Shown piece after piece: positions 7,411 through 57,149 of a DNA stretch of 64,000 nt. Each line of letters opens with the position of its first letter. The stretch's first letter is position 1. The position numbers were made by a program, and so were the translations under genes. Origin of the DNA: Bdellovibrionales bacterium (GTDB lineage: Bacteria > Bdellovibrionota > Bdellovibrionia > Bdellovibrionales > UBA1609); assembly GCA_965205645.1 (NCBI GenBank), contig OZ242172.1, positions 576,122-640,121 of the forward strand. Reading direction: 5' to 3'. A model generated the notes under the pieces. It saw nothing but the letters and a program-made list of their open reading frames with translations, ran no database searches and had not been told where the DNA came from.

Positions 7411-8169
7411 ATGAAAATATTAATTGGTAAGCATAATTTGCGACTTAGTAAAATTATTTTTTTATTAGGTATTTTATGGGGTTGTTCATCTCCGCAATCT
7501 TCTGTTGCGCCGGAAGAGACAGAGCAAGAAGATTCTGGTGTGTTTGGAGTTCAGACGATATGTCATCGGGATGAAGGTTGCACAGCTTCTTGTCACGAAT
7601 TATTTGTCGGAGATTCGGATCATGCAAACAAATGTATGGATCAGACGGTAGGGGATGTGAGGGCATTAAAAGTAGTATTGGCAGCGATGGAAAAAGGTTC
7701 TTGGTCTTCTATTAAACCGGATCAATTAGAGAGGGCTTTGAATTTTGATTCAGATCTTTGGCTTCCTTATGTGGACATTAACAAACCATGGAGCAGGGCT
7801 TTTTTAAAGCGGGTGGCGGAAGAACCTAAGATAGCGGAGTTACTAGACGATAATGAGGTTTTGCGGCGAGCTTTTATGTCTTTGGTGTTATTAGGTTCTC
7901 AGGACGATCAGATTTTAGGTGGAATGCGGGAATATGTGGATACAGATGAGAATCAGACTTTTCTTGGAGTGGCGGCATTAAATAAAAACGATAAAGCATT
8001 TGAAGAGGGGCATCGTTTGTTATCTGATGTTTGTCAGAAGAGGCAGTTATGCATTCAACGTGTGTATTGTGCCATTTACGAAGATATTGTGTTTACACGT
8101 TTGAACGATTTAAGTTTATCAGATGAAGTCACAGATAGTGGTCGTGTCTCAGTTGCTATTTGCAATTAA
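7411..8169 (+). CDS. Cys-rich secreted lipoprotein, paralog family member 1 of 8 (short form)
   Basis: Lipobox-like LLGILWG|C. CHRDEGCTASCHELF (C-x5-C-x3-C) motif and C-terminal CQKRQLCIQRVYC motif, both shared with the other members. Confidence 0.6.
   Translation: MKILIGKHNLRLSKIIFLLGILWGCSSPQSSVAPEETEQEDSGVFGVQTICHRDEGCTASCHELFVGDSDHANKCMDQTVGDVRALKVVLAAMEKGSWSSIKPDQLERALNFDSDLWLPYVDINKPWSRAFLKRVAEEPKIAELLDDNEVLRRAFMSLVLLGSQDDQILGGMREYVDTDENQTFLGVAALNKNDKAFEEGHRLLSDVCQKRQLCIQRVYCAIYEDIVFTRLNDLSLSDEVTDSGRVSVAICN
8147..8169 (+). repeat. Left copy of the 23-bp direct repeat bracketing the inserted cassette (also the 3' end of family member 1)
   Basis: tctcagttgctatttgcaattaa versus tctcagtcgctatttgcaattaa at 9553-9575 (one mismatch). 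Confidence 0.85.
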
Positions 8170-9797: not shown

Positions 9798-9875
9798 TTT
9801 ACATGATTTGTAAATATAATATGCGTGCAAGGAATCGCGGTGAAGTCACTCCCCCTTGGGGGGGCTAAGGTCTGG
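9798..9875 (+). repeat. A-repeat copy (short-core variant)
   Basis: tttacatgatttgtaaatataatatgcgtgcaaggaatcgcggtgaagtcactcccccttgggggggctaaggtctgg. Confidence 0.8.
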
Positions 9876-9999: not shown

Positions 10000-11091
10000 A
10001 TGAAGTTTAAAATATTTGTTTTATTTATTTGTTTGGTAGTGGCTTATTTATCTGCTTGTGGTCTTTACAACAGTAGCACGGATGATGTGTTTAGTTATAG
10101 CAATTCTAGTCGCTCGGGAGATGCGGGTGACGGGGATATTCCGCGCTTGTCTGAACGTTCAAAATCACGTCCAGATTTAGACGATCAACCTTGTGAAGAT
10201 CGAGAGGCTTGTCGCATTGTGTGTAAGGCTATGTATGATGATGTAGATAGTGAAGAAGAGTGTGTAGAATTAACTTATGGCAAGGTGGAAGCTTTAGAGG
10301 AAGTGTATTTAGCTTTAAGAAATGGCGAAACTGACGACACTGACGAAAATGCCGATCCCAATTTAAATGACATAGATTTTGATGATTTAGAAGAATATTT
10401 AGATATTGGATGGGATGGTTGGCTAGATGTTGTGATTCCTAAACATGTAAGGGATAAAGATTATGATAAAATATTTAATACTCTAAAATGGATTGCAGAT
10501 AATGGTGGAGCATCGGATGCACTGATGAATGTCCGGCGAGACACTAGGTACGAGCACCATGGTATTTTAAAAGGATTATTTTTAAATTATTGTCGTCCTG
10601 ATTCTGCTGGCGGTTGTGGTGCAGATAGTAGTGTAACTACAGTAACTACTTCTGCAGATGTAGCTGTTGGTCACAGTATTGAGTTTGATTATAACGCTGG
10701 TGAATTAAAGTGTTCTATATCGTCGCCGTCACAGTCTGAAATAATAATTGCATCTATTACAGAAGATCGTAAGAAAGAATTATTGATTGCGTTGAGTGCA
10801 TTAGGATCTAACTATCTAAGTAGTATTCAAAGTTTTTTTAATTATGCAGCAAATCGTAGGTATGATAATGCTCTTGAGTTAGCTCATCAGCTATTGGAAG
10901 TTGCGTGTGAAACGGATTCTGGTACTGGGTCGGTTAAATTTGAGCAATGTATTCGTGGATTTTATTGTTGGTTAAATGCTCACCATTCTGATAGTGACAG
11001 TCAAATCCTGCCAGCCGATTTTGAAGAAATAGAAATGAGTTTAAATAGTATTAATTTATCCTGTACTTGCGCTAATTTTACAGACATATAG
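10000..11091 (+). CDS. Cys-rich acidic secreted lipoprotein, paralog family member 2
   Basis: Canonical lipobox LSA|C. CEDREACRIVCKAMY, LEEYLDIGWDGW, LKWIADNG and C-terminal CIRGFYCW motifs. Confidence 0.65.
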   Translation: MKFKIFVLFICLVVAYLSACGLYNSSTDDVFSYSNSSRSGDAGDGDIPRLSERSKSRPDLDDQPCEDREACRIVCKAMYDDVDSEEECVELTYGKVEALEEVYLALRNGETDDTDENADPNLNDIDFDDLEEYLDIGWDGWLDVVIPKHVRDKDYDKIFNTLKWIADNGGASDALMNVRRDTRYEHHGILKGLFLNYCRPDSAGGCGADSSVTTVTTSADVAVGHSIEFDYNAGELKCSISSPSQSEIIIASITEDRKKELLIALSALGSNYLSSIQSFFNYAANRRYDNALELAHQLLEVACETDSGTGSVKFEQCIRGFYCWLNAHHSDSDSQILPADFEEIEMSLNSINLSCTCANFTDI

Positions 11092-12486: not shown

Positions 12487-12505
12487 TATACATCATAATT
12501 AGTGA

Positions 12506-12574
12506 AGTCGTGACAGGTGTGCAGCGGAGTTGCGGCGAAGTCACTCCCCCTTGGGGGGCGGGGCTTAGGTCTGG
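12506..12574 (+). repeat. A-repeat copy (short-core variant)
   Basis: agtcgtgacaggtgtgcagcggagttgcggcgaagtcactcccccttggggggcggggcttaggtctgg. Shares the trailing ggct(a/t)aggtctgg with the copy at 9798. Confidence 0.8.
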
Positions 12575-12770: not shown

Positions 12771-13913
12771 ATGCGTGGAATTAAAGAAGTATGGAATTTC
12801 ATTTGTGGTGCAGATAAAAAACTTATTCAAAAAGTTTTTGGCATATTAGTCAGTGGTTTTATTTTAACGGCGATTGTGTCAGCGGGCTTTATGTCTTGCA
12901 CACCGAATTTTGATGTGGATTCTGGCAGTTCCAGGGATAGCAATAACAATAGTGATGACGACGATGATGACGAAGATGATGGAGAAAAGTGCCTAGGTCA
13001 CGAAACTTGTGAAAAAATTTGTGAAAAAATTTATTATGCAGGCAGAGATCAAGTGGATTGCCAGGAAGAAGGCAGGAACAAAGTTGGTCGTTTGGATGAA
13101 ATATATGATCTTTTAAAAACAGGCGATTCTAGAGATTTAGAGAAAATTTTCCCAGATGAAGATGGGGTAGAACTAGATGATTTGGAAGATTATTTAAATA
13201 TTGGTATTTCTGGTGTGGAGGATTTGATTGATGAGAATAGTAAGGGTGATGATTATTGGGATGACATAAATAAGTTGGGATCTGTTTTAAAATGGATTAT
13301 TGATGAAGAAGATGTAGCAAATGTGTTAAATGGGTTAGATGATAATGGAGGACATCGTATTTTAGAAGAGCTTCTTGATAGAATGGAGGTTACTAAAGAC
13401 GGCGATTGTATTAGTAAGAATAGCCTTGCTTGTGGTACTAGTCCAACTATTAATCACGTAAATCATTATGACTATGATAGTAATAGTGGCCAAATTGAAA
13501 TTTGTACTGATAATAGAGATCCAACATTAAAAGGATCTGTTGATCTAGTTAATGGCGCTGATATACAATTATATGATGCTTTATCTTGTGTATATAATGA
13601 CTTAAGGGCTAATGGAAAAGATCAAAATGTGTTTTCTTATGCTAGTGTAAAAAATAATAGCATTATTTTTAATATGGCTTATAATTTATTAAATGATATT
13701 TGTGAAAATGTAGATGATCGCGATCCTGATCATCAAAGAGCTTGTAGAAAAGCTTTACTTTGTTGGACAGGTGTTCAAAGTGAAGAAGGTGATGATCCAA
13801 ATGAAAATTTTTTTAGGGAGTATGTGAATGATCATAGAAATGATTTAGAAAAAGATAGCGGTGGTTCTGACTATAATCAATGTCAACCAAGACATTTTGC
13901 CGATTTCTTTTAA
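12771..13913 (+). CDS. Cys-rich acidic secreted lipoprotein, paralog family member 4
   Basis: FMS|C lipobox-like site, poly-Asp/Glu linker, CLGHETCEKICEKIY, LEDYLNIGISG, LKWIIDEEDV, CRKALLCW, C-terminal NQCQPRHFADFF. Closest paralog of member 5. Confidence 0.7.
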   Translation: MRGIKEVWNFICGADKKLIQKVFGILVSGFILTAIVSAGFMSCTPNFDVDSGSSRDSNNNSDDDDDDEDDGEKCLGHETCEKICEKIYYAGRDQVDCQEEGRNKVGRLDEIYDLLKTGDSRDLEKIFPDEDGVELDDLEDYLNIGISGVEDLIDENSKGDDYWDDINKLGSVLKWIIDEEDVANVLNGLDDNGGHRILEELLDRMEVTKDGDCISKNSLACGTSPTINHVNHYDYDSNSGQIEICTDNRDPTLKGSVDLVNGADIQLYDALSCVYNDLRANGKDQNVFSYASVKNNSIIFNMAYNLLNDICENVDDRDPDHQRACRKALLCWTGVQSEEGDDPNENFFREYVNDHRNDLEKDSGGSDYNQCQPRHFADFF

Positions 13914-14360: not shown

Positions 14361-14512
14361 CAGTCGTGACATGCGTGCAAGGATTCACAGCGGCCGGCGA
14401 CTCGCCGCAGACATTTACTTGTAAACTTAATTAGCAAAGTTGTGACATGCGTGCAAAGAACTCGCGGCGAAAATGTCACCGGCAACTCGCCGGCCACTTT
14501 GAAGGGGGTGGA
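14361..14512 (+). repeat. Two tandem A-repeat copies (variant with a CCGGCGACTCGCCGG-type hairpin)
   Basis: cagtcgtgacatgcgtgcaaggattcacagcggccggcgactcgccg... then tttacttgtaaac...gtgacatgcgtgcaaagaactcgcggcgaaaatgtcaccggcaactcgccggccactttgaagggggtgg. Confidence 0.75.
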
Positions 14513-15440: not shown

Positions 15441-15497
15441 CAGCTCATTCAGTGAAAATCACTCAATCTTATGACATACATCAAAAGGGATGTGGAG

Positions 15498-16658
15498 ATG
15501 ACTCAAAAGAAAAATTCTGATGCATTAATAAAGCCAGTTTTTAGTCATTTAACATTTGTCATCACATTGTTTCTACAATCAACCTTTATTAGCTTGTTAT
15601 TAGCACACCCTACATTCGCCCGTTCATCCATGACAGACCGGCCGATCATTGCTGTGGCAACCAATATCGATAGAGAGAGAAAAGGTGTGAATAATGAAAA
15701 AAAATGTATGGGTCACAAAACTTGTGAGATGTGTGAAAAAATTTATGGTGCGGACAATGATAAAATAGCTTGTCAAAAAGAGAGCCTTAACAAAGTAAAT
15801 CATTTGAATAAAATATATGCTTTTTTAAAAGATGGAGATTATGAGGATTGGGATAAATTTTTCCTGGATGAAGATGAAGTGAATCTAAAATATCTAAAAG
15901 ATTACTTAAATATTGGCGATTCCGGTATAGAAAATCTTATTAAGAATCATTGGAGTGAAGATCAACTGATAAAATTCTTACAATTGATTATTGATAAAAT
16001 ACAGGTAGCGGAAATTTTATATAACTTAGCTGGAGGAAAATATCTTTTAAAAGAAATACTTCTAGCAATAAGAAATAAAACCGATCAATGTATTGGAAAT
16101 AACACTCTTAATGATTGTAATGATTCACCACACGGACATTATGGCAGAACTGGTTATGGTGTAGATTATAGTTTAGACGATGACACCGTTAATATTTGTA
16201 CTGAGGATAAAAACCCCAGTTGGTCATATACATTGGATCATCTTTTTCCATTTCCCAAAGAATTCATTTGGAAGAAAAGGAGTTTTACTTTTTTAGATGA
16301 TGATAACACGTCATTATATGACGCTTTATCTTGTTTCTCATTAATAGATAAAAGTAGCTTTTCAATTACACATTACAATGTATTTTCTTATGCTAGTATG
16401 AAAGAAAATGATTTTATTTTTAATATGGCTTATGATTTATTAAATGATACTTGTGAAGATTTTGATACTGATGAGAACGATTATAAACAACTCTGCAAAA
16501 AAGTTTCGTTTTGTTGGATTCATGAAGTAGATGAGAAACAAGGAGAGAGGAGTTTTAAATATCTTGTTGAGTTTGACTATGATGATGGTTTAGAAGGGGA
16601 TAGCGGTGGTTCTAACTATAATCAATGTGCACCAAGACATTTTGCCGAATTCTTTTAA
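15498..16658 (+). CDS. Chimeric paralog family member 5: PstS-derived leader/signal peptide fused to the Cys-rich family domain
   Basis: N-terminus MTQKKNSDAL...LLLAHPTFARSSMTDRPIIAVA is homologous at DNA and protein level to the PstS N-terminus MTQKKRSNLL...LLLATSTLAYSSMTDMPLVAAS. The rest carries CMGHKTCEMCEKIY, LKDYLNIGDSG, CKKVSFCW and NQCAPRHFAEFF. Confidence 0.75.
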   Translation: MTQKKNSDALIKPVFSHLTFVITLFLQSTFISLLLAHPTFARSSMTDRPIIAVATNIDRERKGVNNEKKCMGHKTCEMCEKIYGADNDKIACQKESLNKVNHLNKIYAFLKDGDYEDWDKFFLDEDEVNLKYLKDYLNIGDSGIENLIKNHWSEDQLIKFLQLIIDKIQVAEILYNLAGGKYLLKEILLAIRNKTDQCIGNNTLNDCNDSPHGHYGRTGYGVDYSLDDDTVNICTEDKNPSWSYTLDHLFPFPKEFIWKKRSFTFLDDDNTSLYDALSCFSLIDKSSFSITHYNVFSYASMKENDFIFNMAYDLLNDTCEDFDTDENDYKQLCKKVSFCWIHEVDEKQGERSFKYLVEFDYDDGLEGDSGGSNYNQCAPRHFAEFF

Positions 16659-17506: not shown

Positions 17507-17572
17507 ATCCTTAGGCGGTTTATTCAGTAAAAATCATTCAAGCTTATAACATACATCAAAAGGGATGTGGAG

Positions 17573-18766
17573 ATGACTCAAAAGAAAAGATCTAATTTGC
17601 TGAAAAATTCGCTCTTCTTTTCTGCATTTTTACGTTTAACATTTGTTGCTGCATGGGTCATAAGCTCAATATTTACTTTGCTATTGGCAACATCCACGCT
17701 CGCTTATTCATCCATGACGGACATGCCACTTGTCGCTGCATCCGCTATCACGCAAATTAAAAAATTTGTTCGCGGAAAAAACCGCCGTCCATTACTCATT
17801 AATGGTGCAGGCGCTTCTTTCCCCTATATCCTGTACTCCAAATGGTTTTCAGAATATCAAAAGATAGATCCTTCTGTGAGAATTAATTATCGCTCCATCG
17901 GAAGCGGAGGAGGAATCCGCCAGTTCTTAATAGGTACTTTAGATTTTGGAGCTACCGATGTGCCAATTATAAAAAGTAAAATGCGCACACTCAAAACACC
18001 TCCACTACATATTCCTACCGCATTAGGCGCTGTGGTTATTAGCTATTATTTACCAACACTGAAAAATACAGATACCCTACAGCTGACACCTGTTATCCTA
18101 GCAGACATTTACCAAGGTAAAATTAAAAAATGGAATCATAAAAAAATAGTGGCCATTAACCCTAAGCTGTCTTTACCAGATCAGCAAATTGTGCCAGTGT
18201 ATCGCGCAGATGGTAGTGGTACAACAGCTGTGTTTACAGAATACCTGGCTCACTTTTCCACAGAATGGCTGCAACAAGCAGGAAAAGGTAAAGCTGTTAA
18301 CTGGCCAACCGGTATCGGAGGTAAAGGGAATGAAGGCGTGATGGGTCTTGTCCGCAAAATACCAGGCGCGATTGGTTACATTGCCTGGAGCTATGCCGCT
18401 AATATCCGATTCCCCACAGCAGCTGTCCAAAATGCATCCGGACATTTTGTAAAAGTTAGTCATGAAAATGCTAGTAACTCCGCTACACAAATTTGGAAAA
18501 AACACCACGACTTGTTTAAACCATTAGCTACTGCCAAAGGCGCTGACGCTTATCCTCTATCCTCTTATACCTACTTGCTTGTGAATCAAAAAATGCTTTC
18601 TCAAAAAGGACTCGCCATCGTAAAATTCCTTAAATGGGCTATGCAAAAAGGACAAACATTTTGCAAACCACTGCATTATATTCCACTTCCTCAACCTGTT
18701 ATACAAGCTACACTTAAACAAATAGATTCCATTTATATACCGAAAGATAATCCTATAAAAAAATGA
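17573..18766 (+). CDS. pstS: Phosphate ABC transporter substrate-binding protein
   Basis: Signal peptide, GSGGGI and YRADGSGTT motifs typical of PstS. Start moved to the ATG at 17573 (MTQKK). Confidence 0.9.
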   Translation: MTQKKRSNLLKNSLFFSAFLRLTFVAAWVISSIFTLLLATSTLAYSSMTDMPLVAASAITQIKKFVRGKNRRPLLINGAGASFPYILYSKWFSEYQKIDPSVRINYRSIGSGGGIRQFLIGTLDFGATDVPIIKSKMRTLKTPPLHIPTALGAVVISYYLPTLKNTDTLQLTPVILADIYQGKIKKWNHKKIVAINPKLSLPDQQIVPVYRADGSGTTAVFTEYLAHFSTEWLQQAGKGKAVNWPTGIGGKGNEGVMGLVRKIPGAIGYIAWSYAANIRFPTAAVQNASGHFVKVSHENASNSATQIWKKHHDLFKPLATAKGADAYPLSSYTYLLVNQKMLSQKGLAIVKFLKWAMQKGQTFCKPLHYIPLPQPVIQATLKQIDSIYIPKDNPIKK

Positions 18767-21277: not shown

Positions 21278-21333
21278 ATATTTTTTTTATAAGTTTTTTT
21301 AAATTAAAAATAGTTTTAGTGATGATACAATCA

Positions 21334-22545: not shown

Positions 22546-22728
22546 GTTTTTACTTCCCGTGTTTTTACTTCCCGTATTTTTACTTCCCGTTGCTTCGTGC
22601 TGCTGCAGACTTTGATCTCTAATTACATTTTTACTTCCCGTTGCTTCGTGCTGCTACATGCCCGGATTTCTAATCATGTTTTTACTTCCCGTTGCTTCGT
22701 GCTGCTACATACCCGGATCTCTAATTAT
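22546..22728. repeat. Tandem array between sufD and sufS: 15-bp unit x2 followed by a 51-bp unit x3
   Basis: Units begin (g/a)tttttacttcccgt at 22546, 22561, 22576, 22627 and 22678. The three long units continue tgcttcgtgctgct(g/a)ca... On the gene strand each unit ends ACGGGAAGTAAAAA(C/T), and the last is followed directly by the sufS ATG. Confidence 0.9.
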
Positions 22729-24146
22729 GTGACTTGTGCTTTTTTCACTTCATTCGCTAAATTTAATAATACGCTTTTATTGCGATGAATCATCTGATTT
22801 AAATGCTCCAAGCAACTATCCGCTGGAAACTGATGTAAAACATCCTTTATATAAGCAAATATCAAAAGCTCCCAAGCAGACTTCATGTCCAATCCACGAG
22901 TTTGTAAATAAAATATTTCGTTCGGATCAAAATTTCCCACCGCAGAACCATGCTGCGCCTGCACCTCGCTGCAATCAATCGCTAATTCCGGTTGGATGCA
23001 AGAGTGCGCACGATCACTTAATAATAAATTCTTGGCCGACTGACTGCAATCCACACCCTTTGCCCAAGATTCAACGTGTACCCGACCATGAAAAATACCC
23101 TTGGATTCATCATTCAATATCCCACGGCAAAATTGACGAGAATAACCCCCTGGCTTTAAATGATGCACATTAAACCGATGATCACTCTGATTCTTATTCT
23201 TTAAAATAGATAAACCTAATAATGTACTACGAGCTTTTTCCCCAACATGCACCACATCCGCCCTGTCCCTGGAAAACCGAGAACCTAAGCTAAAATGCAA
23301 ACGATCTATACTTGATTCTTTCTCCATCTCACTAATCGATTGATTAAAATAACAAGAAGAGCCACTGCCTTGCTCCACCCGAATCCATCGTAAAGCCGAC
23401 TGCTCAGAGTGATACACATTGGATACCGTATTCACTACTGCCTGTCCGTAATGAGAAATGTTCTCCACTAAAGTGAGCCGAGCTCCCTTACCCATAAAAA
23501 TAAAATTCCACCCCCCTAAGGGGGTTACTTTCGCCGCGGCTTCATTTACGTTATTGTCACTATCTTGCAAATCATGTTTACCCAGTGTCTCTGCCGACTC
23601 GGCGGCAAATACAGAATGAATGTGCAAAGCCTTAGAAGACTCATACCCATCCGGTATAAATAAAATATACCCACTTGGAAAAGCCCCAGCTAAATGAAAT
23701 AAACCATCTCCATTTCCAGCTACTTTTTTTTCTCCACGAAAACAATCCAATAACCAAGACCAACACGGAAAATCAGCATTCAACTGATCCCAAGTGCACC
23801 AACGCAAACCATCATCAATAGACGCTTCCACTAATTGATCATTATGAAAATGCAAACGATCTACATTTGGAAAATCAGCAATTAACTCTTCATTAATACT
23901 GTGCCGATCACTTACATTATTGCGCTCGGCATTCTGAAAAATGCTACGTAAAATATTCTGCACATAAGTAAACTGCCACCACTTGTCCGAACCCGACGGA
24001 AATCCCTTCTTTAAAAATTGAGCAAAATGCTTGTCCCGCATTTCACCCAATACCCGCCGCGAGTCCTCGGACGATAAGCCAAGCCATCCTTGCCGCTCCT
24101 GCTCAAATTCCTTTTTTAAAAATTCTATCCATCTGTCATCTGTCAT
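22725..24146 (-). CDS. sufD: Fe-S cluster assembly protein SufD (carries an in-frame A-repeat insertion)
   Basis: SufB/SufD C-terminal signature ...AQHGSAVGNFDPNEIFYLQTRGLDMKSAWELLIFAYI. Internal GKHDLQDSDNNVNEAAAKVTPLGG is encoded by the repeat at 23508-23583. Confidence 0.8.
   Translation of the reverse strand: MTDDRWIEFLKKEFEQERQGWLGLSSEDSRRVLGEMRDKHFAQFLKKGFPSGSDKWWQFTYVQNILRSIFQNAERNNVSDRHSINEELIADFPNVDRLHFHNDQLVEASIDDGLRWCTWDQLNADFPCWSWLLDCFRGEKKVAGNGDGLFHLAGAFPSGYILFIPDGYESSKALHIHSVFAAESAETLGKHDLQDSDNNVNEAAAKVTPLGGWNFIFMGKGARLTLVENISHYGQAVVNTVSNVYHSEQSALRWIRVEQGSGSSCYFNQSISEMEKESSIDRLHFSLGSRFSRDRADVVHVGEKARSTLLGLSILKNKNQSDHRFNVHHLKPGGYSRQFCRGILNDESKGIFHGRVHVESWAKGVDCSQSAKNLLLSDRAHSCIQPELAIDCSEVQAQHGSAVGNFDPNEIFYLQTRGLDMKSAWELLIFAYIKDVLHQFPADSCLEHLNQMIHRNKSVLLNLANEVKKAQVT
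23508..23583 (-). repeat. A-repeat copy (long-core form) inserted in frame in sufD
   Basis: ccacccccctaagggggttactttcgccgcggcttcatttacgttattgtcactatcttgcaaatcatgtttaccc. Confidence 0.9.
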
Positions 24147-25844: not shown

Positions 25845-27581
25845 TTAAGAACATTCTAATAAGCGATAAAAATCTGATTGGATTTTTTTTAGCTCTTTGT
25901 CAGATCGGCCGCCAAAACGAAAAGTAAACATGCTCTGTGTATTGGAAAGACGTGCCAGACCCCAAGCTTTCCCCGGAAAACATACCCGCACACCATCTAC
26001 TAAACATAACTGCGCTTCAGAATATTTCGCATAATGATCTTTGACTCGATTCAAAAGTTTGTGTGCCCGTGCTATGTCATTAACCGCTATACGTATCTCA
26101 TTCGTATGAACTCCAATGTTAGTAGGCAGTATTTTATCTAATAACTCTTCTACACGATACACACCACTCTCACATAAAATCCGTAACAAACGTAAAGTTG
26201 CATATACACCATCATCTAAAAAATAACCTTCATCACAAAAAAAGTAATGTCCGCTAAACTCACCACCGAATATCGCCCCTAATGCCAATGTTCGCCGACG
26301 AATTAAACTATGCCCCGACCCCCCAAGGGGGAGTGGTTTCGCCGCGGCTTCATTTACGTTATTGTCACGTCTTTGCTTCTCAAGGGGGAGTGGTTTCGCC
26401 GCGGCTTCATTTACGTTATTGTCACTATTTTGCAAATCATGTTTACCAAGTGCCAACGCAGATTTCTGCGTTTCTAAAAAATCAAAGAACCATGGGGCGC
26501 ATTTTACATCTGCGACAATAACACCGGCATCCTTATTCCGTTTCCATATATCAGAAATAAAAATCGCCATTAGCTCATCTCCATATAGCACCCTACCGGA
26601 TTCACTGATCACGACTAAACGATCCCCATCCCCATCCAAAGCCACTCCAAACTTTGCTCCACAGCTTCTTACCTTCTGACGTAAATCATTTAAATTTTCA
26701 TCTAAGGAAGGATCTGGATGATGATTCGGAAAACGTCCGTCCGGATCTGCATATAACCATTCAGCATTTAAACCTAACTCCTTAAAAACTGCTTGTGCCA
26801 CCGGCCCCGCTGCTCCATTTCCGCAATCCACTACAATGCTTCCCTGATCCTTCCACATTTTCCCTAACTGAGAAAATTTCTTTTTCATTAACTGAACATA
26901 AAAAGATATCACTGTATTATCTAAACTTTTGACTGACTTCTTCTCACGATTGATATTTGTTAAATGTCCACTGTCCGATACACAATGCTTGTCAGATAAA
27001 GATGTGGATTTTGTCTTTGCTAACAAAGAATCATCCGTAGATAATTGAAGGATAATATCTTTTAACTCTTGCAACTTCTCATCACATAAAGTTTCTTCAT
27101 ATACAGAAAATTTAAAGCCGTTAAAGTCAGCTGGGTTATGACTTGCCGTCACCATCACAGAAGCTGCGGTATCAGGAAAAAAATGGGAAGCAACAAAACA
27201 AACCGGAGTGGATACTAAACCTAAAAATTGTATCGGTGCTTGACCGGCAGTGAGTCCCTCTATTAAAGCATTTGTTACGTCTGGACTGCTTAAGCGACTG
27301 TCATGTCCCACTGCTACAAAGCTTAAAGACATAGGTGTGTCTAACAGTTTATCTTTTTTACTACTATGAAATGCCTTTTTGTCTTTTGTGATACTACGTT
27401 CACTGTTATTCCTAATGTTTGTGCGATATGAGATAAACTTAGCAAAAGCTATCCCCAAGTATCGCACGAAATCTAAATCAAAATCTTTTCCATATATTCC
27501 ACGAATATCATTTTTTCTAAAAATATCCGGATTCCATTTCATGTGCTTCAACCTAATATCCATCTCATACTCATTATGCAC
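25845..27581 (-). CDS. Phosphomannomutase/phosphoglucomutase (carries 1.5 in-frame A-repeat copies)
   Basis: Active-site TASHNPADFNGFKF, Mg site ALDGDGDRLVV, GHSLIRR sugar loop. The insertion ALGKHDLQNSDNNVNEAAAKPLPLEKQRRDNNVNEAAAKPLPLGG lies directly before GHS. Confidence 0.85.
   Translation of the reverse strand: MHNEYEMDIRLKHMKWNPDIFRKNDIRGIYGKDFDLDFVRYLGIAFAKFISYRTNIRNNSERSITKDKKAFHSSKKDKLLDTPMSLSFVAVGHDSRLSSPDVTNALIEGLTAGQAPIQFLGLVSTPVCFVASHFFPDTAASVMVTASHNPADFNGFKFSVYEETLCDEKLQELKDIILQLSTDDSLLAKTKSTSLSDKHCVSDSGHLTNINREKKSVKSLDNTVISFYVQLMKKKFSQLGKMWKDQGSIVVDCGNGAAGPVAQAVFKELGLNAEWLYADPDGRFPNHHPDPSLDENLNDLRQKVRSCGAKFGVALDGDGDRLVVISESGRVLYGDELMAIFISDIWKRNKDAGVIVADVKCAPWFFDFLETQKSALALGKHDLQNSDNNVNEAAAKPLPLEKQRRDNNVNEAAAKPLPLGGSGHSLIRRRTLALGAIFGGEFSGHYFFCDEGYFLDDGVYATLRLLRILCESGVYRVEELLDKILPTNIGVHTNEIRIAVNDIARAHKLLNRVKDHYAKYSEAQLCLVDGVRVCFPGKAWGLARLSNTQSMFTFRFGGRSDKELKKIQSDFYRLLECS
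26319..26447 (-). repeat. A-repeat, one truncated plus one full long-core copy, in frame in the phosphomannomutase gene
   Basis: ccccccaagggggagtggtttcgccgcggcttcatttacgttattgtcac, a 12-nt joint, then caagggggagtggtttcgccgcggcttcatttacgttattgtcactattttgcaaatcatgtttacc. Confidence 0.9.
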
Positions 27582-27602
27582 TAACTGCCTTCCAAAAGGG
27601 TA

Positions 27603-27708
27603 CTCCCAAAGAGAGTGACTTTCGCCGTCCGCGAGTTGCGACCCCCCAAGGGGGAGTGGTTTCGCCGCGATTCCTTCGTACTCATGTCACTATCTTGTAA
27701 ATGATATG
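27603..27708 (-). repeat. Two adjacent A-repeat copies (one partial), intergenic
   Basis: ctcccaaagagagtgactttcgccgtccgcgagttgcg then accccccaagggggagtggtttcgccgcgattccttcgtactcatgtcactatcttgtaaatgatatg. Confidence 0.8.
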
Positions 27709-27710
27709 GG

Positions 27711-27828
27711 TTTCTCCACTTAAAAATCTTATTCAAAACGAGTTTGGCTTTGAAGCAGAGCGACTGAAAGCTTGCTCTGCGGCAAAACGCATGTTTGAGC
27801 TTTTGAATAAGATTTTTAAGTGGAGAAA
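27711..27828. repeat. B-repeat hairpin element (118 bp)
   Basis: tttctccacttaaaaatcttattcaaaa-...core...-ttttgaataagatttttaagtggagaaa. Same core as 12369, different but self-complementary arms. Confidence 0.9.
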
Positions 27829-27843
27829 TGACTACCCCTGGAC

Positions 27844-27900
27844 TCCCTCACAAAGGGAGGTGACTTTACCGCAATTTCCTGCACTTATGTCATAATCTTG
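27844..27900 (-). repeat. A-repeat copy (diverged), intergenic
   Basis: ctccctcacaaagggaggtgactttaccgcaatttcctgcacttatgtcataatcttg. Confidence 0.65.
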
Positions 27901-27906
27901 TTCTGT

Positions 27907-28845
27907 TTACAAGTAAATGTTAACAGTGTTCATTGCCCACAGTAAAGCCCGCCGCATCGATTCCGCAGAAGCCTTGTTCTGTCCAAAAATATTTTTAGCG
28001 GTGCCATGACTCACACTAGTTCTTACAAAAGGTAACCCTAAACTCAGTTGAAAACTCTGTGTCCCATGTGCCATTTTAAATGGAATTAAAGCTTGATCAT
28101 GATACAAACAAACATATAGGGAAAAACAAGGCCAATTACTTTTTAAAAAGGCGCTATCCGGTACTAAAGGTCCTGTTACTTCCTTTGACCACTTTTTTAA
28201 ATATAATTTCAGAGTGGATTCTTCGGTGCCTAGTAATCCCTCTTCCCCTGCATGTGGGTTAAGTCCCAATATTGCTATTGGTTTGTTTTGGTAAGTTTCT
28301 GGTAAACACTTTCGTAGATGACAACATAAATGCAAACATCTGTCTAAGTCGTTGGGTGTCCATGTGATTTTCTTTAAAGGAACATGGCCAGTTAACAATG
28401 TCACATTAAAGTAATCCCCTAAGAAAGTCATAAACACTGTCTTTGCTCCGGAAATTCTCTGTAAAAGCGGTGTGTGTCCTTTTTCAGAAAAATGATCTGC
28501 TTGCATTTGTGTTTTAGATAAGGGACCTGTAACCATTATTTCATCAGACGGACTACGGGTGCATCGTTGCGCTACCGTTTCCACCCACTGTGTTGGACGG
28601 GTAACAGAAGCGATATCTAATAATATGTTTTCTGTTTTGGGTGCAGTATTTAAGTCATTTATATTATTGAGTGTAACGATTCGTCCAGGCCATTTAAAAA
28701 TGTGAAATAGATCTTGTCCAACTCCTTGTTGCCTCCATAACACAAATTGTACACCGGTGCATTGGCCTATTGTCGCTAACGCTTTTAAGCTAACTTCCAG
28801 TCCAATACCGTCTGTATCACCAGTGGTGATGTGAATGCGCTTCAT
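27907..28845 (-). CDS. pdxA: 4-hydroxythreonine-4-phosphate dehydrogenase
   Basis: ITTGDTDGIGLEV and GLNPHAGEEG motifs. Downstream of the surA-like gene, the same surA-pdxA order found in E. coli. Confidence 0.85.
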   Translation of the reverse strand: MKRIHITTGDTDGIGLEVSLKALATIGQCTGVQFVLWRQQGVGQDLFHIFKWPGRIVTLNNINDLNTAPKTENILLDIASVTRPTQWVETVAQRCTRSPSDEIMVTGPLSKTQMQADHFSEKGHTPLLQRISGAKTVFMTFLGDYFNVTLLTGHVPLKKITWTPNDLDRCLHLCCHLRKCLPETYQNKPIAILGLNPHAGEEGLLGTEESTLKLYLKKWSKEVTGPLVPDSAFLKSNWPCFSLYVCLYHDQALIPFKMAHGTQSFQLSLGLPFVRTSVSHGTAKNIFGQNKASAESMRRALLWAMNTVNIYL

Positions 28846-33237: not shown

Positions 33238-33840
33238 ATGAGAGATACTATTCAGTGCAGAGTATTTTACTATCTAAAAACCATGGTTTTTTTGTTTGCT
33301 TTATTTCCAATGATTAGTTTCGCATCACCTTTAGAGAATGTATGGGATACATTGTTTCCAACTACTAGAGCAATCTCAAGAAGTGAAGTTCAGAACCTTT
33401 TACAAAATTCTTCTGAAAAAAGTATAATGCATATTCAAACCTATAAAGGATGCGAACCAGCCTTTGTAACTCTTGGAACAAAAGTATGGTTGAGCATGAC
33501 GGCACAAAAGACGGAAAAAAAGACCTGTTCTGTTGCTGTTCATCCAGGCAATAAAATATCCGTTAGTTTTAGCAATAAAACTGTTCTTGTGGCACCAATG
33601 AGCAGTAGAGCGGTCGTTGGTGATATAAAATATAACCTAGCCATTGGTGAGATAGATGGACACAATGTTTTAATGGTTGCATATGATGAAAATGGTACAA
33701 TCTCTTATGCAATATATACTGTTTATGATTTAAATGACAATGTAGTAGATTCTTATCTACAAGATGAATGGGATACATGGAAAGATTCTATTAGATATTG
33801 TGTTATTGCACCTGTATATCAACAATCAATGTGTGATTAG
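33238..33840 (+). CDS. Small secreted hypothetical protein, tandem duplicate copy 1
   Basis: Signal peptide MVFLFALFPMISFA|SP, Cys-containing ~180-aa mature part. Near-identical to the next gene. Confidence 0.6.
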   Translation: MRDTIQCRVFYYLKTMVFLFALFPMISFASPLENVWDTLFPTTRAISRSEVQNLLQNSSEKSIMHIQTYKGCEPAFVTLGTKVWLSMTAQKTEKKTCSVAVHPGNKISVSFSNKTVLVAPMSSRAVVGDIKYNLAIGEIDGHNVLMVAYDENGTISYAIYTVYDLNDNVVDSYLQDEWDTWKDSIRYCVIAPVYQQSMCD

Positions 33841-33882: not shown

Positions 33883-34497
33883 ATGAAATATATCATTAAA
33901 TGCAGGTGTTTTTATTATCTAAAAACCATGGTTTTTTTGTTTGCTTTATTCCCTATCATTAGTTCCGCATCACCTTTAGAGAATTTATGGGATACATTGT
34001 TCCCAACTACTGGAGCAATCTCAAGAAGTGAAGTTCAGAACCTTTTACAAAATTCTTCTGAAAAAAGTATAATGCATATTCGCACCTATAAAGGATGCGA
34101 AGCAGTCCCCTCTGTAATTCTTGTAACTCTTGGAACAAGAGTATGGTTGAGCATGATGGCACAAAAGACGGAAAAAGAGACCTGTTCTGTTACTGTTCAC
34201 TCAGGTAATAAAGTATCCGTTAGTTTTAGCAATAAAACTGTTCTTGTGGCACCAATGAGCATGAAACTGGTCGTTGGTGATATAAAAGAAAACATAGCCA
34301 TTGGTGAGATAGATGAACACAATGTTTTAATGGTTGCATATGATGAAAATGGTACAATCTCTTATGCAATATATACTGTTTATGATTTAAATGACAATGT
34401 AGTATATTCTGCTCTACAAGATGAATGGGATACATGGAAAGATTCTATTAGATATTGTGTTATTACACCTGTATATCAACAATCAATGTGTGATTAG
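33883..34497 (+). CDS. Small secreted hypothetical protein, tandem duplicate copy 2
   Basis: Same sequence as copy 1 apart from scattered substitutions and a 4-aa insertion (AVPSVILV region). The 3' flank tagtattccaataaatagtttcaattccattca is also duplicated. Confidence 0.6.
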   Translation: MKYIIKCRCFYYLKTMVFLFALFPIISSASPLENLWDTLFPTTGAISRSEVQNLLQNSSEKSIMHIRTYKGCEAVPSVILVTLGTRVWLSMMAQKTEKETCSVTVHSGNKVSVSFSNKTVLVAPMSMKLVVGDIKENIAIGEIDEHNVLMVAYDENGTISYAIYTVYDLNDNVVYSALQDEWDTWKDSIRYCVITPVYQQSMCD

Positions 34498-34616
34498 TAT
34501 TCCAATAAATAGTTTCAATTCCATTCATAGAAAATCTATTTTTCCTATCTATTGAATTTTCTGTTTATAACAAGAGCAATTTGAGTTCAACATTCAAATA
34601 TGCTATGACTTCTAAA

Positions 34617-34944
34617 GGGGATTGCGGGTGCTTGCTGAATTTATTTTAATAAATTTAGAGGAAAGTCCGGACTCCAATGGCAACGCAAAAGGTGAAAACC
34701 TTTCCACCGGAAACGGTGCGGACAAGTGGAACAGAAAGTATATCCGAGTCTTTATTGCTGTAATGAGTGGTGAGGATTGCTGGAGTGAAATCAGCTAAAC
34801 TCTGCGTGGAGCAAGATCAAATAAGGAAGTGCTTGAGTACCGCCAATACGATACTTCCGGGTCGATCGCATAGATGAATAAGTGCCTCCTCTGAGCTTTT
34901 GTCGGTTAAGCCAGAGAAGACAGAATCCGGCTTACAGCAACCCC
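34617..34944 (+). ncRNA. rnpB: RNase P RNA, bacterial type A
   Basis: Universally conserved GAGGAAAGTCCGGACTCC (P4 5' strand) and GACAGAATCCGGCTTACAG (P4 3' strand). P1 pairing ggggattgc / gcaacccc. Ends approximate. Confidence 0.9.
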
Positions 34945-35452
34945 TTAAAACCGGCCCTTTTAAAAAATATATCCTGTTTTTTTTTCGATTGTCGTGGCCA
35001 CGCACGTAGAGGATACAATTCCTCAATATCAGCTAAAATAGCAATTTTTAAGTCTTTTCTATACACTTACTATAAAATTTTGGATGTTTTCTATATAGTT
35101 GATATAAATTTTAGGGCTTTTCTATATATTACTGCATATAGTACTTCAATAATATAAAACAAGTAATAATGAGGTTTTAAAAAATATGAATAACCCGAGT
35201 AATCCTTTTAATCCAAGTTCAATAGTAACACCTACATTATTTGCTGGAAGAAGTCAGCAAGTGGTGAATGTTTTAAAAAAACTATCCAATGTGAGGGAAG
35301 GAATCTAAAATCCTTAGAAAGAGAATAAACAAAATTTTTTATTTTTTGCTTATACAAGATTTTCTGTCCTGTATTATCCGCTCCCCTTCGGTCGCAGATA
35401 CTATAGGCCGCTTCTTCGCTTCGAATTCTACCTTTTGTTTTTTAAATAAAAG

Positions 35453-35526
35453 TGATGGCGGTAGGACTCGAACCTACGACCTACGGCTTAGAAGGCCGTT
35501 GCTCTATCCAGCTGAGCTACGCCACC
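35453..35526 (-). tRNA. tRNA-Arg (anticodon UCU)
   Basis: Minus strand GGTGGCGTAGCTCAGCTGGATAGAGCAACGGCCTTCTAAGCCGTAGGTCGTAGGTTCGAGTCCTACCGCCATCA folds as a cloverleaf. 7-bp acceptor stem, anticodon loop CUUCUAA, TPsiC loop GGTTCGAGTCC, no encoded CCA. Confidence 0.9.
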
Positions 35527-37721: not shown

Positions 37722-37826
37722 CGCCCCCCAAGGGGGGATGACTTCGCCGCGATTCCTCTGCACGCCTGTTACAACTTTGCCGATTATGTTTACAAATAAA
37801 AGCCTGTGGTAACTTGCTGCCGCCAC
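37722..37826 (-). repeat. A-repeat copy plus adjacent variant tail, intergenic
   Basis: cgccccccaaggggggatgacttcgccgcgattcctctgcacgcctgttacaactttgccgattatgtttacaaataaaagcctgtggtaacttgctgccgccac. Confidence 0.75.
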
Positions 37827-40322: not shown

Positions 40323-41612
40323 TTGAAAAAAATGTTTAACGTAAAATTATTTCACACTTGTATAAATATTAGACGATATATTCGTAAGTACTTAAAATAT
40401 ATAGAATTTAATAAAATTTTATCAGAAAATACCTGTCGAGCTTACCATATAGATTTAAGACAGTTGTTAATAAATTATCATCCGGTGCTTGGTAATTTAT
40501 TTTCTTTAAAAGGTTGGAAACTATACACTGATTTGTCTCAGGATGAGTCTGTTTTTGGCGTAGAGAGTGACTTATTTTCAGACATTGTTCATCAGCAGGT
40601 TGGTGGCGGGTTGCTACGGGCACTTACTTGTAAACATGATGTGCAAGATAGTGACAATAACGTAAATGCAGCCGCGGCGAAAGTAACCCCCTCTGGGGGT
40701 GGCAGGTCACCACGGGCACTTACTTGTAAACATGATGTGCAAGATAGTGACAATAACGTAAATGCAGCCGCGGCGAAAGTAACCCCCTCTGGGGGTATGG
40801 ATCCATTAGAGGAGAAGTGGGTAGGGGAGATGATGAAATACAGTTTTAAGAAGTGGGCTTCATTATCTCCGGCATCTCGTAATCGAAAGTATGCTTGTTT
40901 GAAAGCTTTTTTATCTTGGTTATTTGTTCATGGAGGAGTGCAGGTGGATATGCAGAGTTGGATTAAGCTACCACGTGTTCCTCAACGTATCCCTTATTAC
41001 TTATCTGTAGATGAGGCTCTTTACTTAATAAAGACTGTGCAAAAACAGGCAAACGCAAAAGAAAGAGATCGGGATTTATTATTAATTCTTTTGCTATATG
41101 GTGGCGGACTGAGGGTGAGTGAGGCTTGTGGTATGCAGTGGAATCAAGTGGATATAGCGAATGGTTGTTTACGTGTATTAGGTAAGGGTGGAAAAGAAAG
41201 GTTAGTGACAGTGCCAAAAGTGGTGTTAAAGGAGTTAGGTCGCTGTCAAAGTCTTCAGCATGACAAACATAATTTGCAAAGCAATAAAAAGGGAGCAGCG
41301 GAATCGCGGCGAAACGTTCCTCGCGACCCGCGAGTTTTTCCTGGGTTAGCGGTTAGGCAGGCTTATGAGATCGTTCGACGTTGGGGTCAGCGTGCGGGTT
41401 TAAGTAAACCGTTAAGTCCTCATGTTTTGCGACACAGTTTTGCGACACATTTATTAAGCAGTGGATCTGATTTACGTACTTTACAGGAGTTATTGGGGCA
41501 TCGTTCTTTGAGTGCTACTCAAAAGTATACGCACTTACAGATGTCACATTTGAATCGTTTGTTAGAATCTTATCATCCTTTACGTAATCGTCAGCGCGAT
41601 AAATCACGTTGA
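40323..41612 (+). CDS. Tyrosine site-specific recombinase XerC/XerD family (three in-frame A-repeat insertions)
   Basis: LRVSEA (Arg I), HVLRHSFATHLL and LLGHRSLSATQKYTH (catalytic Tyr). Two 32-codon tandem insertions LTCKHDVQDSDNNVNAAAAKVTPSGG in the N-terminal domain and a variant copy in the catalytic domain. Confidence 0.85.
   Translation: MKKMFNVKLFHTCINIRRYIRKYLKYIEFNKILSENTCRAYHIDLRQLLINYHPVLGNLFSLKGWKLYTDLSQDESVFGVESDLFSDIVHQQVGGGLLRALTCKHDVQDSDNNVNAAAAKVTPSGGGRSPRALTCKHDVQDSDNNVNAAAAKVTPSGGMDPLEEKWVGEMMKYSFKKWASLSPASRNRKYACLKAFLSWLFVHGGVQVDMQSWIKLPRVPQRIPYYLSVDEALYLIKTVQKQANAKERDRDLLLILLLYGGGLRVSEACGMQWNQVDIANGCLRVLGKGGKERLVTVPKVVLKELGRCQSLQHDKHNLQSNKKGAAESRRNVPRDPRVFPGLAVRQAYEIVRRWGQRAGLSKPLSPHVLRHSFATHLLSSGSDLRTLQELLGHRSLSATQKYTHLQMSHLNRLLESYHPLRNRQRDKSR
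40617..40796 (+). repeat. Two tandem long-core A-repeat copies (96-bp period) in frame in xerC/D
   Basis: cgggcacttacttgtaaacatgatgtgcaagatagtgacaataacgtaaatgcagccgcggcgaaagtaaccccctctgggggt occurs at 40617 and again at 40713. Confidence 0.9.
41259..41334 (+). repeat. Variant A-repeat copy in frame in the xerC/D catalytic domain
   Basis: catgacaaacataatttgcaaagcaataaaaagggagcagcggaatcgcggcgaaacgttcctcgcgacccgcgag. The tail and cgcggcgaa core are recognisable; the head resembles the partial copy at 27603. Confidence 0.6.
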
Positions 41613-41645: not shown

Positions 41646-41686
41646 ATTTAAATATTCTGCTCAAAAGCTCAGACATGCGTTTTGCC
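41646..41686 (+). repeat. Half B-repeat, left of the A copy
   Basis: gatttaaatattctgctcaaaagctcagacatgcgttttgcc. Confidence 0.7.
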
Positions 41687-41752
41687 CCCCAAGGGGGAGT
41701 GACTTCGCCGCGGCTGCATTTACGTTATTGTCACAGCTTTGCATATTTTGTG
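41685..41752 (-). repeat. A-repeat copy (long-core form), intergenic, flanked by two half B-repeats
   Basis: ccccccaagggggagtgacttcgccgcggctgcatttacgttattgtcacagctttgcatattttgtg. Confidence 0.85.
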
Positions 41753-57075: not shown

Positions 57076-57141
57076 CACCCCCAAAGGGGGTTACTTTCGA
57101 CGCGGCTGCATTTACATTATTGTCACTACTGTGCAAATTAT
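57076..57141 (-). repeat. A-repeat copy (long-core form), intergenic
   Basis: cacccccaaagggggttactttcgacgcggctgcatttacattattgtcactactgtgcaaattat. Confidence 0.85.
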
Positions 57142-57149
57142 ATTATTCT

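Follow-up and report, generated by a model that had tools for sequence, protein, structure and literature searches.

The window, i.e., the whole 64,000-nt stretch of Bdellovibrionales DNA analyzed in this study, carries on its minus strand a gene for a phosphomannomutase/phosphoglucomutase (PMM/PGM) that contains, in frame, two head-to-tail cores of a short dispersed repeat. The open reading frame (ORF; 25845-27581) is open throughout its 578 codons, as an earlier note on this DNA had stated. The protein itself is probably shorter, since its database version (P0001) has 565 aa and the orthologues begin with MKWN, which points to the ATG of codon 14 (27542) as the true start. The Pfam domains PGM_PMM_I, II, and III were matched. 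The model for domain IV was not reported; the C-terminal region nevertheless aligns to residues 304-452 of AlgC, the PMM/PGM of Pseudomonas aeruginosa, which is the nearest solved structure (E 3e-73).

The window protein was aligned with 26 orthologues with an identity of 37-56% (alignment A1, 27 PMM/PGM sequences), of which the named ones are metagenome-assembled genomes (MAGs) of Bdellovibrionales/Oligoflexia. Invariant in this alignment are the phosphoserine loop TASHNP (codons 145-150), the metal loop DGDGDR (codons 316-321), the DVKC motif (codons 358-361), residues G423, H424, and S425 of the SGHS motif (S422-S425; 26307-26318), the canonical sugar-binding loop GGEFSGH (codons 439-445; 26247-26267), and the phosphate loop RLSNTQ (codons 544-549). 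With all four loop motifs and the four-domain fold present, the protein belongs to the PMM/PGM subgroup of the alpha-D-phosphohexomutases. Over the 164 codons 3' of the insert, the comparison with a close relative (contig L007, see below) yields 14 synonymous (dS 0.135) and seven non-synonymous differences (dN 0.019), corresponding to a dN/dS of 0.14 (binomial P = 2e-5 against neutrality). Judged by the invariant active-site motifs and this ratio, the gene looks functional.

Structure of the Insert and Its Junctions

Compared to the orthologues, the window protein has a net gain of 123 nt or 41 codons (H381-G421; 26319-26441, minus strand; HDLQNSDNNVNEAAAKPLPLEKQRRDNNVNEAAAKPLPLGG). The 26 orthologues all read xxxMWK-SGHSLIR without interruption, whereas the window protein reads SALALGK, followed by 41 residues and then SGHSLIR, and the corresponding columns of A1 are filled by the window protein alone. 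Codons 379-421 (26319-26447) read GKHDLQNSDNNVNEAAAKPLPLEKQRRDNNVNEAAAKPLPLGG, followed by SGHSLIRR; this is exactly the translation quoted in the earlier note, whose claim that a dispersed repeat is inserted in frame in the PMM/PGM gene is thereby borne out. The note had itself raised the objection that the region could be ancestral sequence. This is ruled out by the absence of the insert from 26/26 orthologues, and two syntenic relatives free of the repeat (L088 and L089) lack it as well. Across the clade, PMM/PGM proteins carry many differing lineage-specific insertions (P0015, P0045, P0024, P0026, P0048, and P0050). Those of P0015 and P0045 are situated just before the xxMWK strand, and P0050 shows, when compared to P0048, an in-frame duplication. 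The clade may have a tendency toward in-frame insertion.

The insert consists of two cores (A-cores, defined below) arranged head to tail, the first of which lacks the terminal G-run. The first copy (26381-26441, minus strand; CATGAT...CCCCCTTG; nhmmer E 9e-20) holds a 45-nt string, GTGACAATAACGTAAATGAAGCCGCGGCGAAACCACTCCCCCTTG on the coding strand, at 26381-26425. The second copy comprises the 3' 50 nt of the core (26319-26368, minus strand; nhmmer E 8e-16), i.e., the same 45-mer at 26324-26368 and the G-run. Both occurrences are identical (0 mismatches), and no such pair is expected by chance (100 shuffles). Tandem Repeats Finder reports a period of 57 with 1.9 copies and 94% matches (26324-26433), so the ‘one and a half copies’ of the earlier note are to be read as two cores.

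The two cores are separated by a linker of 12 nt (AGAAGCAAAGAC; 26369-26380, minus strand), which codes for part of EKQRR. In this linker, 6/12 positions deviate from what a plain 57-nt duplication predicts, while there is no difference in the other 90 nt (45 + 45 nt). A plain 57-nt tandem duplication is ruled out by this junction. The tandem duplication claimed earlier is therefore not supported as a simple one. In comparison with composite copies of the repeat, the linker resembles the right end (GAGAAA) of a separate palindrome, named B (see below), joined to a 5'-truncated core (GCAAAG..GTGACA), with about 15 nt of the 5' part missing. Composites of the order core-B-core exist upstream of PMM (27603-27900) and in the sufD gene of the relative, and the PMM arrangement is therefore most likely a collapsed composite or a product of recombination between sub-modules.

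At the 5' side, DNA homologous to the element extends 12 nt beyond the net gain of 41 codons. The sequence GCACTTGGTAAA (A377-K380; 26442-26453, minus strand) is the conserved 5' motif of the element (‘H-module,’ see below) and is situated where the orthologues have [I/V]MWK. The same motif is found ahead of the sufD copy and, in the form RCAYTTAYTTGTAAA, ahead of the xerC copies as well as three intergenic copies (37725, 14424, and 27847). The conserved native [I/V]MWK thus seems to be overwritten by an element-derived ALGK, with the Lys codon taken from the GTAAAC of the element, and the insert would not be a pure addition. This change may be benign since orthologue P0035 naturally reads LIGK in place of MWK. 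Directly 5' of the motif lies a perfect 8-bp hairpin (AACGCAGA-AA-TCTGCGTT; 26455-26472, minus strand), which may belong either to the host or to the element. Stems of at least 7 bp occur in 1.6% of random 36-nt windows, and a hairpin is present at the site 5' of the H motif in five or six of nine H-type copies.

Position of the Insert in the Enzyme

The earlier note had placed the insert before a ‘GHS sugar-binding loop.’ The sugar-binding loop of the superfamily is the Glu/Ser loop (PMC6443537, PMC5570346), which corresponds to GGEFSGH in the window protein and lies 17 residues past the end of the insert. Still, the label is right in spirit. H424 corresponds to His308 of P. aeruginosa PMM/PGM and His303 of Xanthomonas citri PGM (HMMER alignment to 1k35/2h4l), and the backbone amide of the latter contacts O3/O4 of the sugar (PMC6443537). 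The insert thus ends two residues before a residue equivalent to a ligand-contacting one.

An AlphaFold model built on A1 reached a mean predicted local distance difference test score (pLDDT) of 80.6 and a predicted TM-score (pTM) of 0.83. Residues 379-422 have a pLDDT of about 30-35 and no secondary structure. They are preceded by a short strand (376-377), and the next helix extends from H424 to 433. The insert is thus predicted to be a disordered loop, while the PMM/PGM fold is otherwise modeled confidently; this is the outcome of the structural modeling that the earlier note had proposed. The fold is similar to that of AlgC (PDB 1K35, 2FKM; Foldseek TM 0.85, normalized by target), with which the window protein shares the four-domain architecture, the phosphoserine, metal-, sugar-, and phosphate-binding loops, and the equivalents of K285, H308, and H329. 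Unlike AlgC, it has 56 residues where AlgC has 15 (AlgC 289-303), with query residue 363 pairing with AlgC 288 and query residue 420 with AlgC 304. It also differs from AlgC in two other low-confidence segments at residues 70-84 and 196-221, which are lineage-specific insertions. These segments were considered as older copies of the repeat (tested as residues 46-88 and 177-247), but no significant similarity elsewhere in the window was found.

The Repeat Family

The family was delineated by repeat search, alignment, and an nhmmer profile, and the counts given here cover the 64-kb window. We found about 16 related cores, of which six are located within genes (sufD, PMM, and xerC) and the remainder between genes. 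The A-core is about 66 nt long on the coding strand (CATGATTTGCAAGATAGTGACAATAACGTAAATGMAGCCGCGGCGAAA....CCCCCTTGGGGGG), encodes HDLQxSDNNVNEAAAKxxPLGG, and ends with a conserved CCCCC-TT-GGGGG hairpin. A variant with a differing middle part is termed ‘V’ core. Ahead of many cores lies an H-module (RCAYTT(AYT)TGTAAA), itself often preceded by a GC-rich hairpin, and this optional 5' module measures about 30 nt. Intergenic copies are often joined to the B palindrome, a separate module of about 115-130 nt with inverted termini of 25-35 nt. No Rfam family was found for the core at the gathering or E-value threshold, and the B palindrome gave spurious microRNA hits only. Folding of the whole element as DNA was significant for one out of five copies, namely a xerC unit (z = -3.0, compared to -1.9, -1.1, +0.3, and +1.0 for the others).

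Besides PMM, sufD contains a single in-frame A-type copy (23511-23587, minus strand; TLGKHDLQDSDNNVNEAAAKVTPLGG; repeat search and nhmmer). The xerC-like integrase gene contains two tandem in-frame units of 96 nt, each consisting of an H-module and an A-core (40602-40796, plus strand; repeat search), and an in-frame V-type core in its catalytic domain (41266-41314, plus strand; nhmmer; KHNLQSNKKGAAESRRN). As the earlier note had said, orientation and reading frame are the same in PMM, sufD (23511-23587), and xerC (40602-40796). All four differences between the two 96-nt units of xerC fall in the 5' GC-rich hairpin region (40602-40620 versus 40698-40716), suggesting that the 5' hairpin segment of the units changes fast, perhaps in a hairpin-templated manner.

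The spacer of 325 nt between pdxA and PMM (27582-27906) is almost wholly built from repeat modules (27603-27900, minus strand), comprising an H-module with V core (27847-27900), a B palindrome with terminal inverted repeats of about 25 nt (27711-27828), a second V core (27642-27707), and an incomplete 3' end (27603-27627). In addition, pdxA ends (...NIYL*) inside an H-module (ACATTTACTTGTAA; 27907-27920), which means that the repeat supplies the last codons and the stop codon of this gene. Further intergenic copies are found at 41685-41752 (minus strand; an A-core flanked by B-module sequence), 57078-57144 and 37725-37791 (both minus strand), and 12492-12557, 9800-9863, and 14424-14472 (all plus strand).

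All six genic cores of the window run in the sense direction of the gene concerned and share a common frame. Only one of the three sense frames of the core is open. All three antisense frames are open as well but encode more hydrophobic peptides, and the frame in use is the most hydrophilic of the four open ones. Under random insertion with every open frame tolerated, three out of four surviving genic copies would be expected in antisense. Four out of five independent genic events are in sense (P ~0.016), with the pstS gene of the relative (see below) as the sole antisense case.

A Close Relative With a Different Repeat Content

A search with SufD retrieved P0122, which is 96% identical to the window SufD outside one indel and is encoded on contig L007 (ENA sample ERZ25067264). 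This contig runs collinear to the window and shares about 97% nucleotide identity with it. Its end opens with CGAAACCACTCCCCCTTGGGGGGTCGGGGCAT... (reading KPLPLGGSGHSLIRRR), which is the PMM element with the same 3' junction as in the window, and the PMM insertion must therefore predate the split of both genomes. The assembly of the relative broke inside the PMM element, so that L007 covers the 3' junction only. We also sought the N-terminal half of its PMM through neighboring genes, but the window pdxA, the surA-like gene, and further neighbors are singleton clusters in the protein database. The strain comparison proposed in the earlier note thus confirms the insertion in a second genome, while its copy number in PMM lies beyond the contig end.

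The two genomes also differ in the repeat content of other genes. In sufD, the relative has an additional V core and B palindrome (178 nt; L007 2787-2964, versus 23555-23577 in the window), which add 67 aa in frame, resulting in a protein of 540 aa. This segment is situated exactly between the GGTAAA of the H-module and the A-core, a boundary at which nested insertions or deletions may be especially frequent. The parts of sufD flanking the insert have dN/dS values of 0.26 and 0.04 between the two genomes. The relative's pstS (L007 9716-10999, minus strand; 427 aa) contains an antisense H + V copy with a duplicated 3' end (10704-10853), in frame after the signal peptide, whereas in the window pstS (17567-18766; 399 aa) the corresponding site (17718-17782) is occupied by no more than a short, degenerate stretch. 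Finally, a TTL-like protein contains one additional repeat unit in the window genome (P0189) compared to the relative (P0194). Given these differences in sufD, pstS, and the TTL-like protein, the family is dynamic.

Two further observations concern the sufD neighborhood. Directly 3' of sufD, the window has three tandem units of 51 nt (22577-22727), with which the corresponding stretch of the relative aligns in two registers, suggesting a copy-number difference. Between sufS and an Nfu-like gene, the relative encodes a GmrSD-family gene (GmrSD_N/GmrSD_C; about 1.9 kb; L007 5242-6960) that is absent from the window genome (compared at 21282-21332 of the window).

Distribution Beyond the Window

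The more distant relatives L088 (a circular contig of 1.41 Mb) and L089 share the gene order surA-pdxA-PMM-atpE-atpB-sufD-sufS. No copy of the repeat family was found in their syntenic loci (33 kb), and pdxA and PMM abut or overlap in both. L088 has intergenic palindromic repeats of its own (2782-2928 and 7421-7897).

The core had no match in an exact-pattern scan of the genome collection searched and of the JGI metagenomes, and none by blastn in plasmids. A phmmer search with the double unit of xerC against 1.8 billion representative proteins revealed further host proteins. Three of these are encoded on the same contig (1,555,701 bp) as, but outside, the window (P0182, P0186, and P0189), i.e., a PilM-like protein with five tandem in-frame units of 23 aa (HDLQGSDNNVNAAAAKVSPATRG) and a V unit, an Amidase_2 protein, and the TTL-like protein, the latter two also with in-frame units. 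An ExoIII-family protein with in-frame units (P0187) is encoded on a separate 64-kb ENA contig that was traced to neither genome. At least seven genes of the window genome thus contain the repeat (sufD, PMM, xerC, the PilM-like, amidase, and TTL-like genes, and pdxA at its stop codon), and their functions are unrelated; the ExoIII-family gene is an eighth host.

Comparison With Known Repeat Families

In the summaries given in PMC10969869 and PMC1779305, the Rickettsia palindromic elements (RPEs) of Ogata et al. (2000, 2002) are described as interspersed repeats that occur between genes and, in frame, within housekeeping genes. The family described here is similar in being short, interspersed, and dispersed over both intergenic and protein-coding DNA, in occurring in frame in unrelated housekeeping genes, and in its lineage-specific proliferation in a small genome with deteriorated or shortened copies. 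As for an RPE, the host frame is kept in PMM (123 nt without a stop codon) and the insert is absent from orthologous proteins (26 orthologues, L088, and L089). The RPE peptide is compatible with the fold and function of its host; the same may hold for PMM, given the predicted loop on a confident fold, the dN/dS of 0.14, and the intact catalytic motifs. There are also differences. The unit is shorter (66-96 nt versus 100-150 bp for RPEs), only partly palindromic with significant single-strand folding for one copy in five, often amplified in frame as tandem sub-modules (up to five units), and nested with a separate palindrome bearing terminal inverted repeats. The two families are likened by behavior; homology is not expected, since the host lineage differs, with Bdellovibrionales/Oligoflexia MAGs as its nearest named relatives. 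By this analogy, we regard the family as RPE-like, in-frame selfish repeats in a new lineage. No description of RPE-like in-frame repeats in this lineage was found in the literature searched.

MITEs, or miniature inverted-repeat transposable elements, with ORFs and located inside genes are represented by ERIC, BOX, QMITE1 of Coxiella, and the MITEs of Anabaena (PMC10969869). They share with the family a small size, a non-autonomous nature, a structured sequence, and the ability to fuse in frame with host ORFs. The A-core differs from MITEs in having neither terminal inverted repeats nor a target-site duplication. Inverted repeats (25-35 nt) are restricted to the adjoining B palindrome, and the 64-kb window showed neither a parent insertion sequence nor a transposase. 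The short GC-rich hairpins (CCCCCTTGGGGGG, GCCGCGGC), their dispersal and frequent clustering in mosaics, and their abundance between genes are reminiscent of repetitive extragenic palindromes (REPs) and bacterial interspersed mosaic elements (BIMEs). REPs are extragenic by definition, however, while 6 of about 16 cores are found inside genes here, and no gene for a REP-associated tyrosine transposase (RAYT) was identified.

Origin and Fate of the Insert

We consider it probable (about 0.8) that a selfish, lineage-specific interspersed repeat entered PMM in the only frame that can be tolerated and now forms a disordered loop in an enzyme under purifying selection. The element would be a short dispersed repeat with MITE-like or RPE-like selfish behavior, composed of a core of about 66 nt and an optional 5' module of about 30 nt. 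In PMM, two head-to-tail cores would occupy the only sense frame without a stop codon and would be translated into a hydrophilic segment rich in Ala, Asn, Pro, and Gly. This segment would protrude as a disordered loop, with the last strand of domain 3 on one side and, on the other, the helix starting with the ligand-contacting His. The enzyme would keep its fold and activity, and the insertion would persist as a tolerated passenger. The two-core layout most likely stems from a larger core composite, possibly core-B palindrome-core, whose sub-modules underwent recombination or slippage with each other.

Several observations weigh against this interpretation. Mobility is inferred from the distribution of the copies only, because neither a transposase nor terminal inverted repeats nor a target-site duplication can be linked to the A-core. 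Its ends (CATGAT... and ...CCCCCTTGGGGGG) are not inverted repeats, no duplication flanks the copies in PMM, sufD, and xerC, and the paralogous ORFs of the window (see below), screened for a transposase, gave no Pfam match. Secondly, identical 45-mers beside a strongly diverged 12-nt linker are not explained by a simple duplication, and the collapse of a composite is unproven. Nor is the 5' junction that of a clean insertion, as element-like DNA overlaps four, possibly 10, codons that align to conserved native residues. Leaving the fold two residues before one that contacts the ligand, the loop may bring some functional cost or effect. Finally, a profile of the repeat peptide searched against a set of 5.8 billion proteins matched a single ORF of 36 aa and missed even PMM and sufD, so that the count of about 16 cores stands for the 64-kb window.

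With a low probability, the element may be more than a passenger. Its 5' module would then have overwritten the [I/V]MWK end of the domain 3 strand, with ALGK now serving as working residues, while the 41-residue loop, anchored two residues from the substrate-contacting His, would act as lid or regulator of the cleft. The family would constitute a new type of mobile element that remodels proteins. Its coding bias would be strictly toward the sense frame, its 5' hairpin would change fast, and its modules would be amplified in frame and in tandem in many housekeeping enzymes of a Bdellovibrionota-like genome that has been reduced. We regard this scenario as speculative and doubtful.

Also improbable is that the repeat peptide is an exapted functional module kept by selection in several enzymes, either as a flexible lid or regulatory loop over the active-site cleft or as an interaction or localization tag shared between hosts. 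The insert stops two residues before H424, the counterpart of a substrate-contacting residue, the element-coded ALGK takes the place of the conserved MWK with the Lys retained, and the insert is kept in two lineages. The genic copies, moreover, have one orientation and frame even though all three antisense frames are open (P ~0.016 for four out of five events). This bias is equally well explained by hydrophilicity, for which the open sense frame ranks first among the four open frames. Between genes, the copies are conserved to the same degree as within genes, and some of the intergenic copies have frameshifts or stops in the ‘coding’ frame, indicating conservation at the DNA level. The hosts (SufD, an integrase, and PilM-like, amidase, ExoIII-family, and TTL-like proteins) are unrelated, copy number varies freely between relatives, and the segment is predicted to be disordered.

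Two other explanations are very unlikely. The PMM gene could be decaying, with an ORF that is still open but an activity that was abolished by the insertion beside the active site. The conserved Trp of MWK is lost, a loop of 41 residues adjoins the GHS motif, and the genome is small (1.56-Mb contig) and may be undergoing reduction. Yet the dN/dS of 0.14 was reached after the insertion, every catalytic residue is invariant, the remaining fold is modeled with confidence, and orthologue P0035 does without MWK as well. Equally far-fetched is an assembly artifact behind the two-core structure or the copy number, for although both 45-mers are identical and the relative's assembly breaks exactly inside this repeat, the window stems from a contig of 1.56 Mb, the junction is marked by a unique linker of 12 nt with the reading frame preserved, the 3' junction is confirmed independently by the relative's contig, and in-frame tandem units are present in several other genes.

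To our knowledge, the frequent in-frame colonization of housekeeping genes by short repeats has so far been regarded as a peculiarity of Rickettsia. An unrelated repeat family appears to do likewise in an uncultured lineage with a small genome, whose PMM and SufD have their nearest named relatives among Bdellovibrionales/Oligoflexia MAGs. It could provide a second natural system for studying how new parts of proteins are made by selfish DNA and how much inserted sequence an enzyme can accommodate next to the active site. It also serves as a warning for annotation, as inserts of this kind lead to broken assemblies and to distorted alignments and domain calls.

Further Features of the Window

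Two pairs of paralogous ORFs share 70-93% DNA identity over parts of their length and belong to no Pfam family (12771-13913 and 15471-16658; 33238-33840 and 33883-34497). The first pair is located in a region that is rearranged relative to L007. A bacterial RNase P RNA of class A is encoded at 34616-34950 (plus strand, 161.6 bits), followed by a tRNA gene at 35453-35526 (minus strand). Near the window end, a long array with a period of 15 nt (63172-63486) is made up of GGCAGTAAAGTCCAA-like units and probably represents a coding region for pentapeptide repeats.

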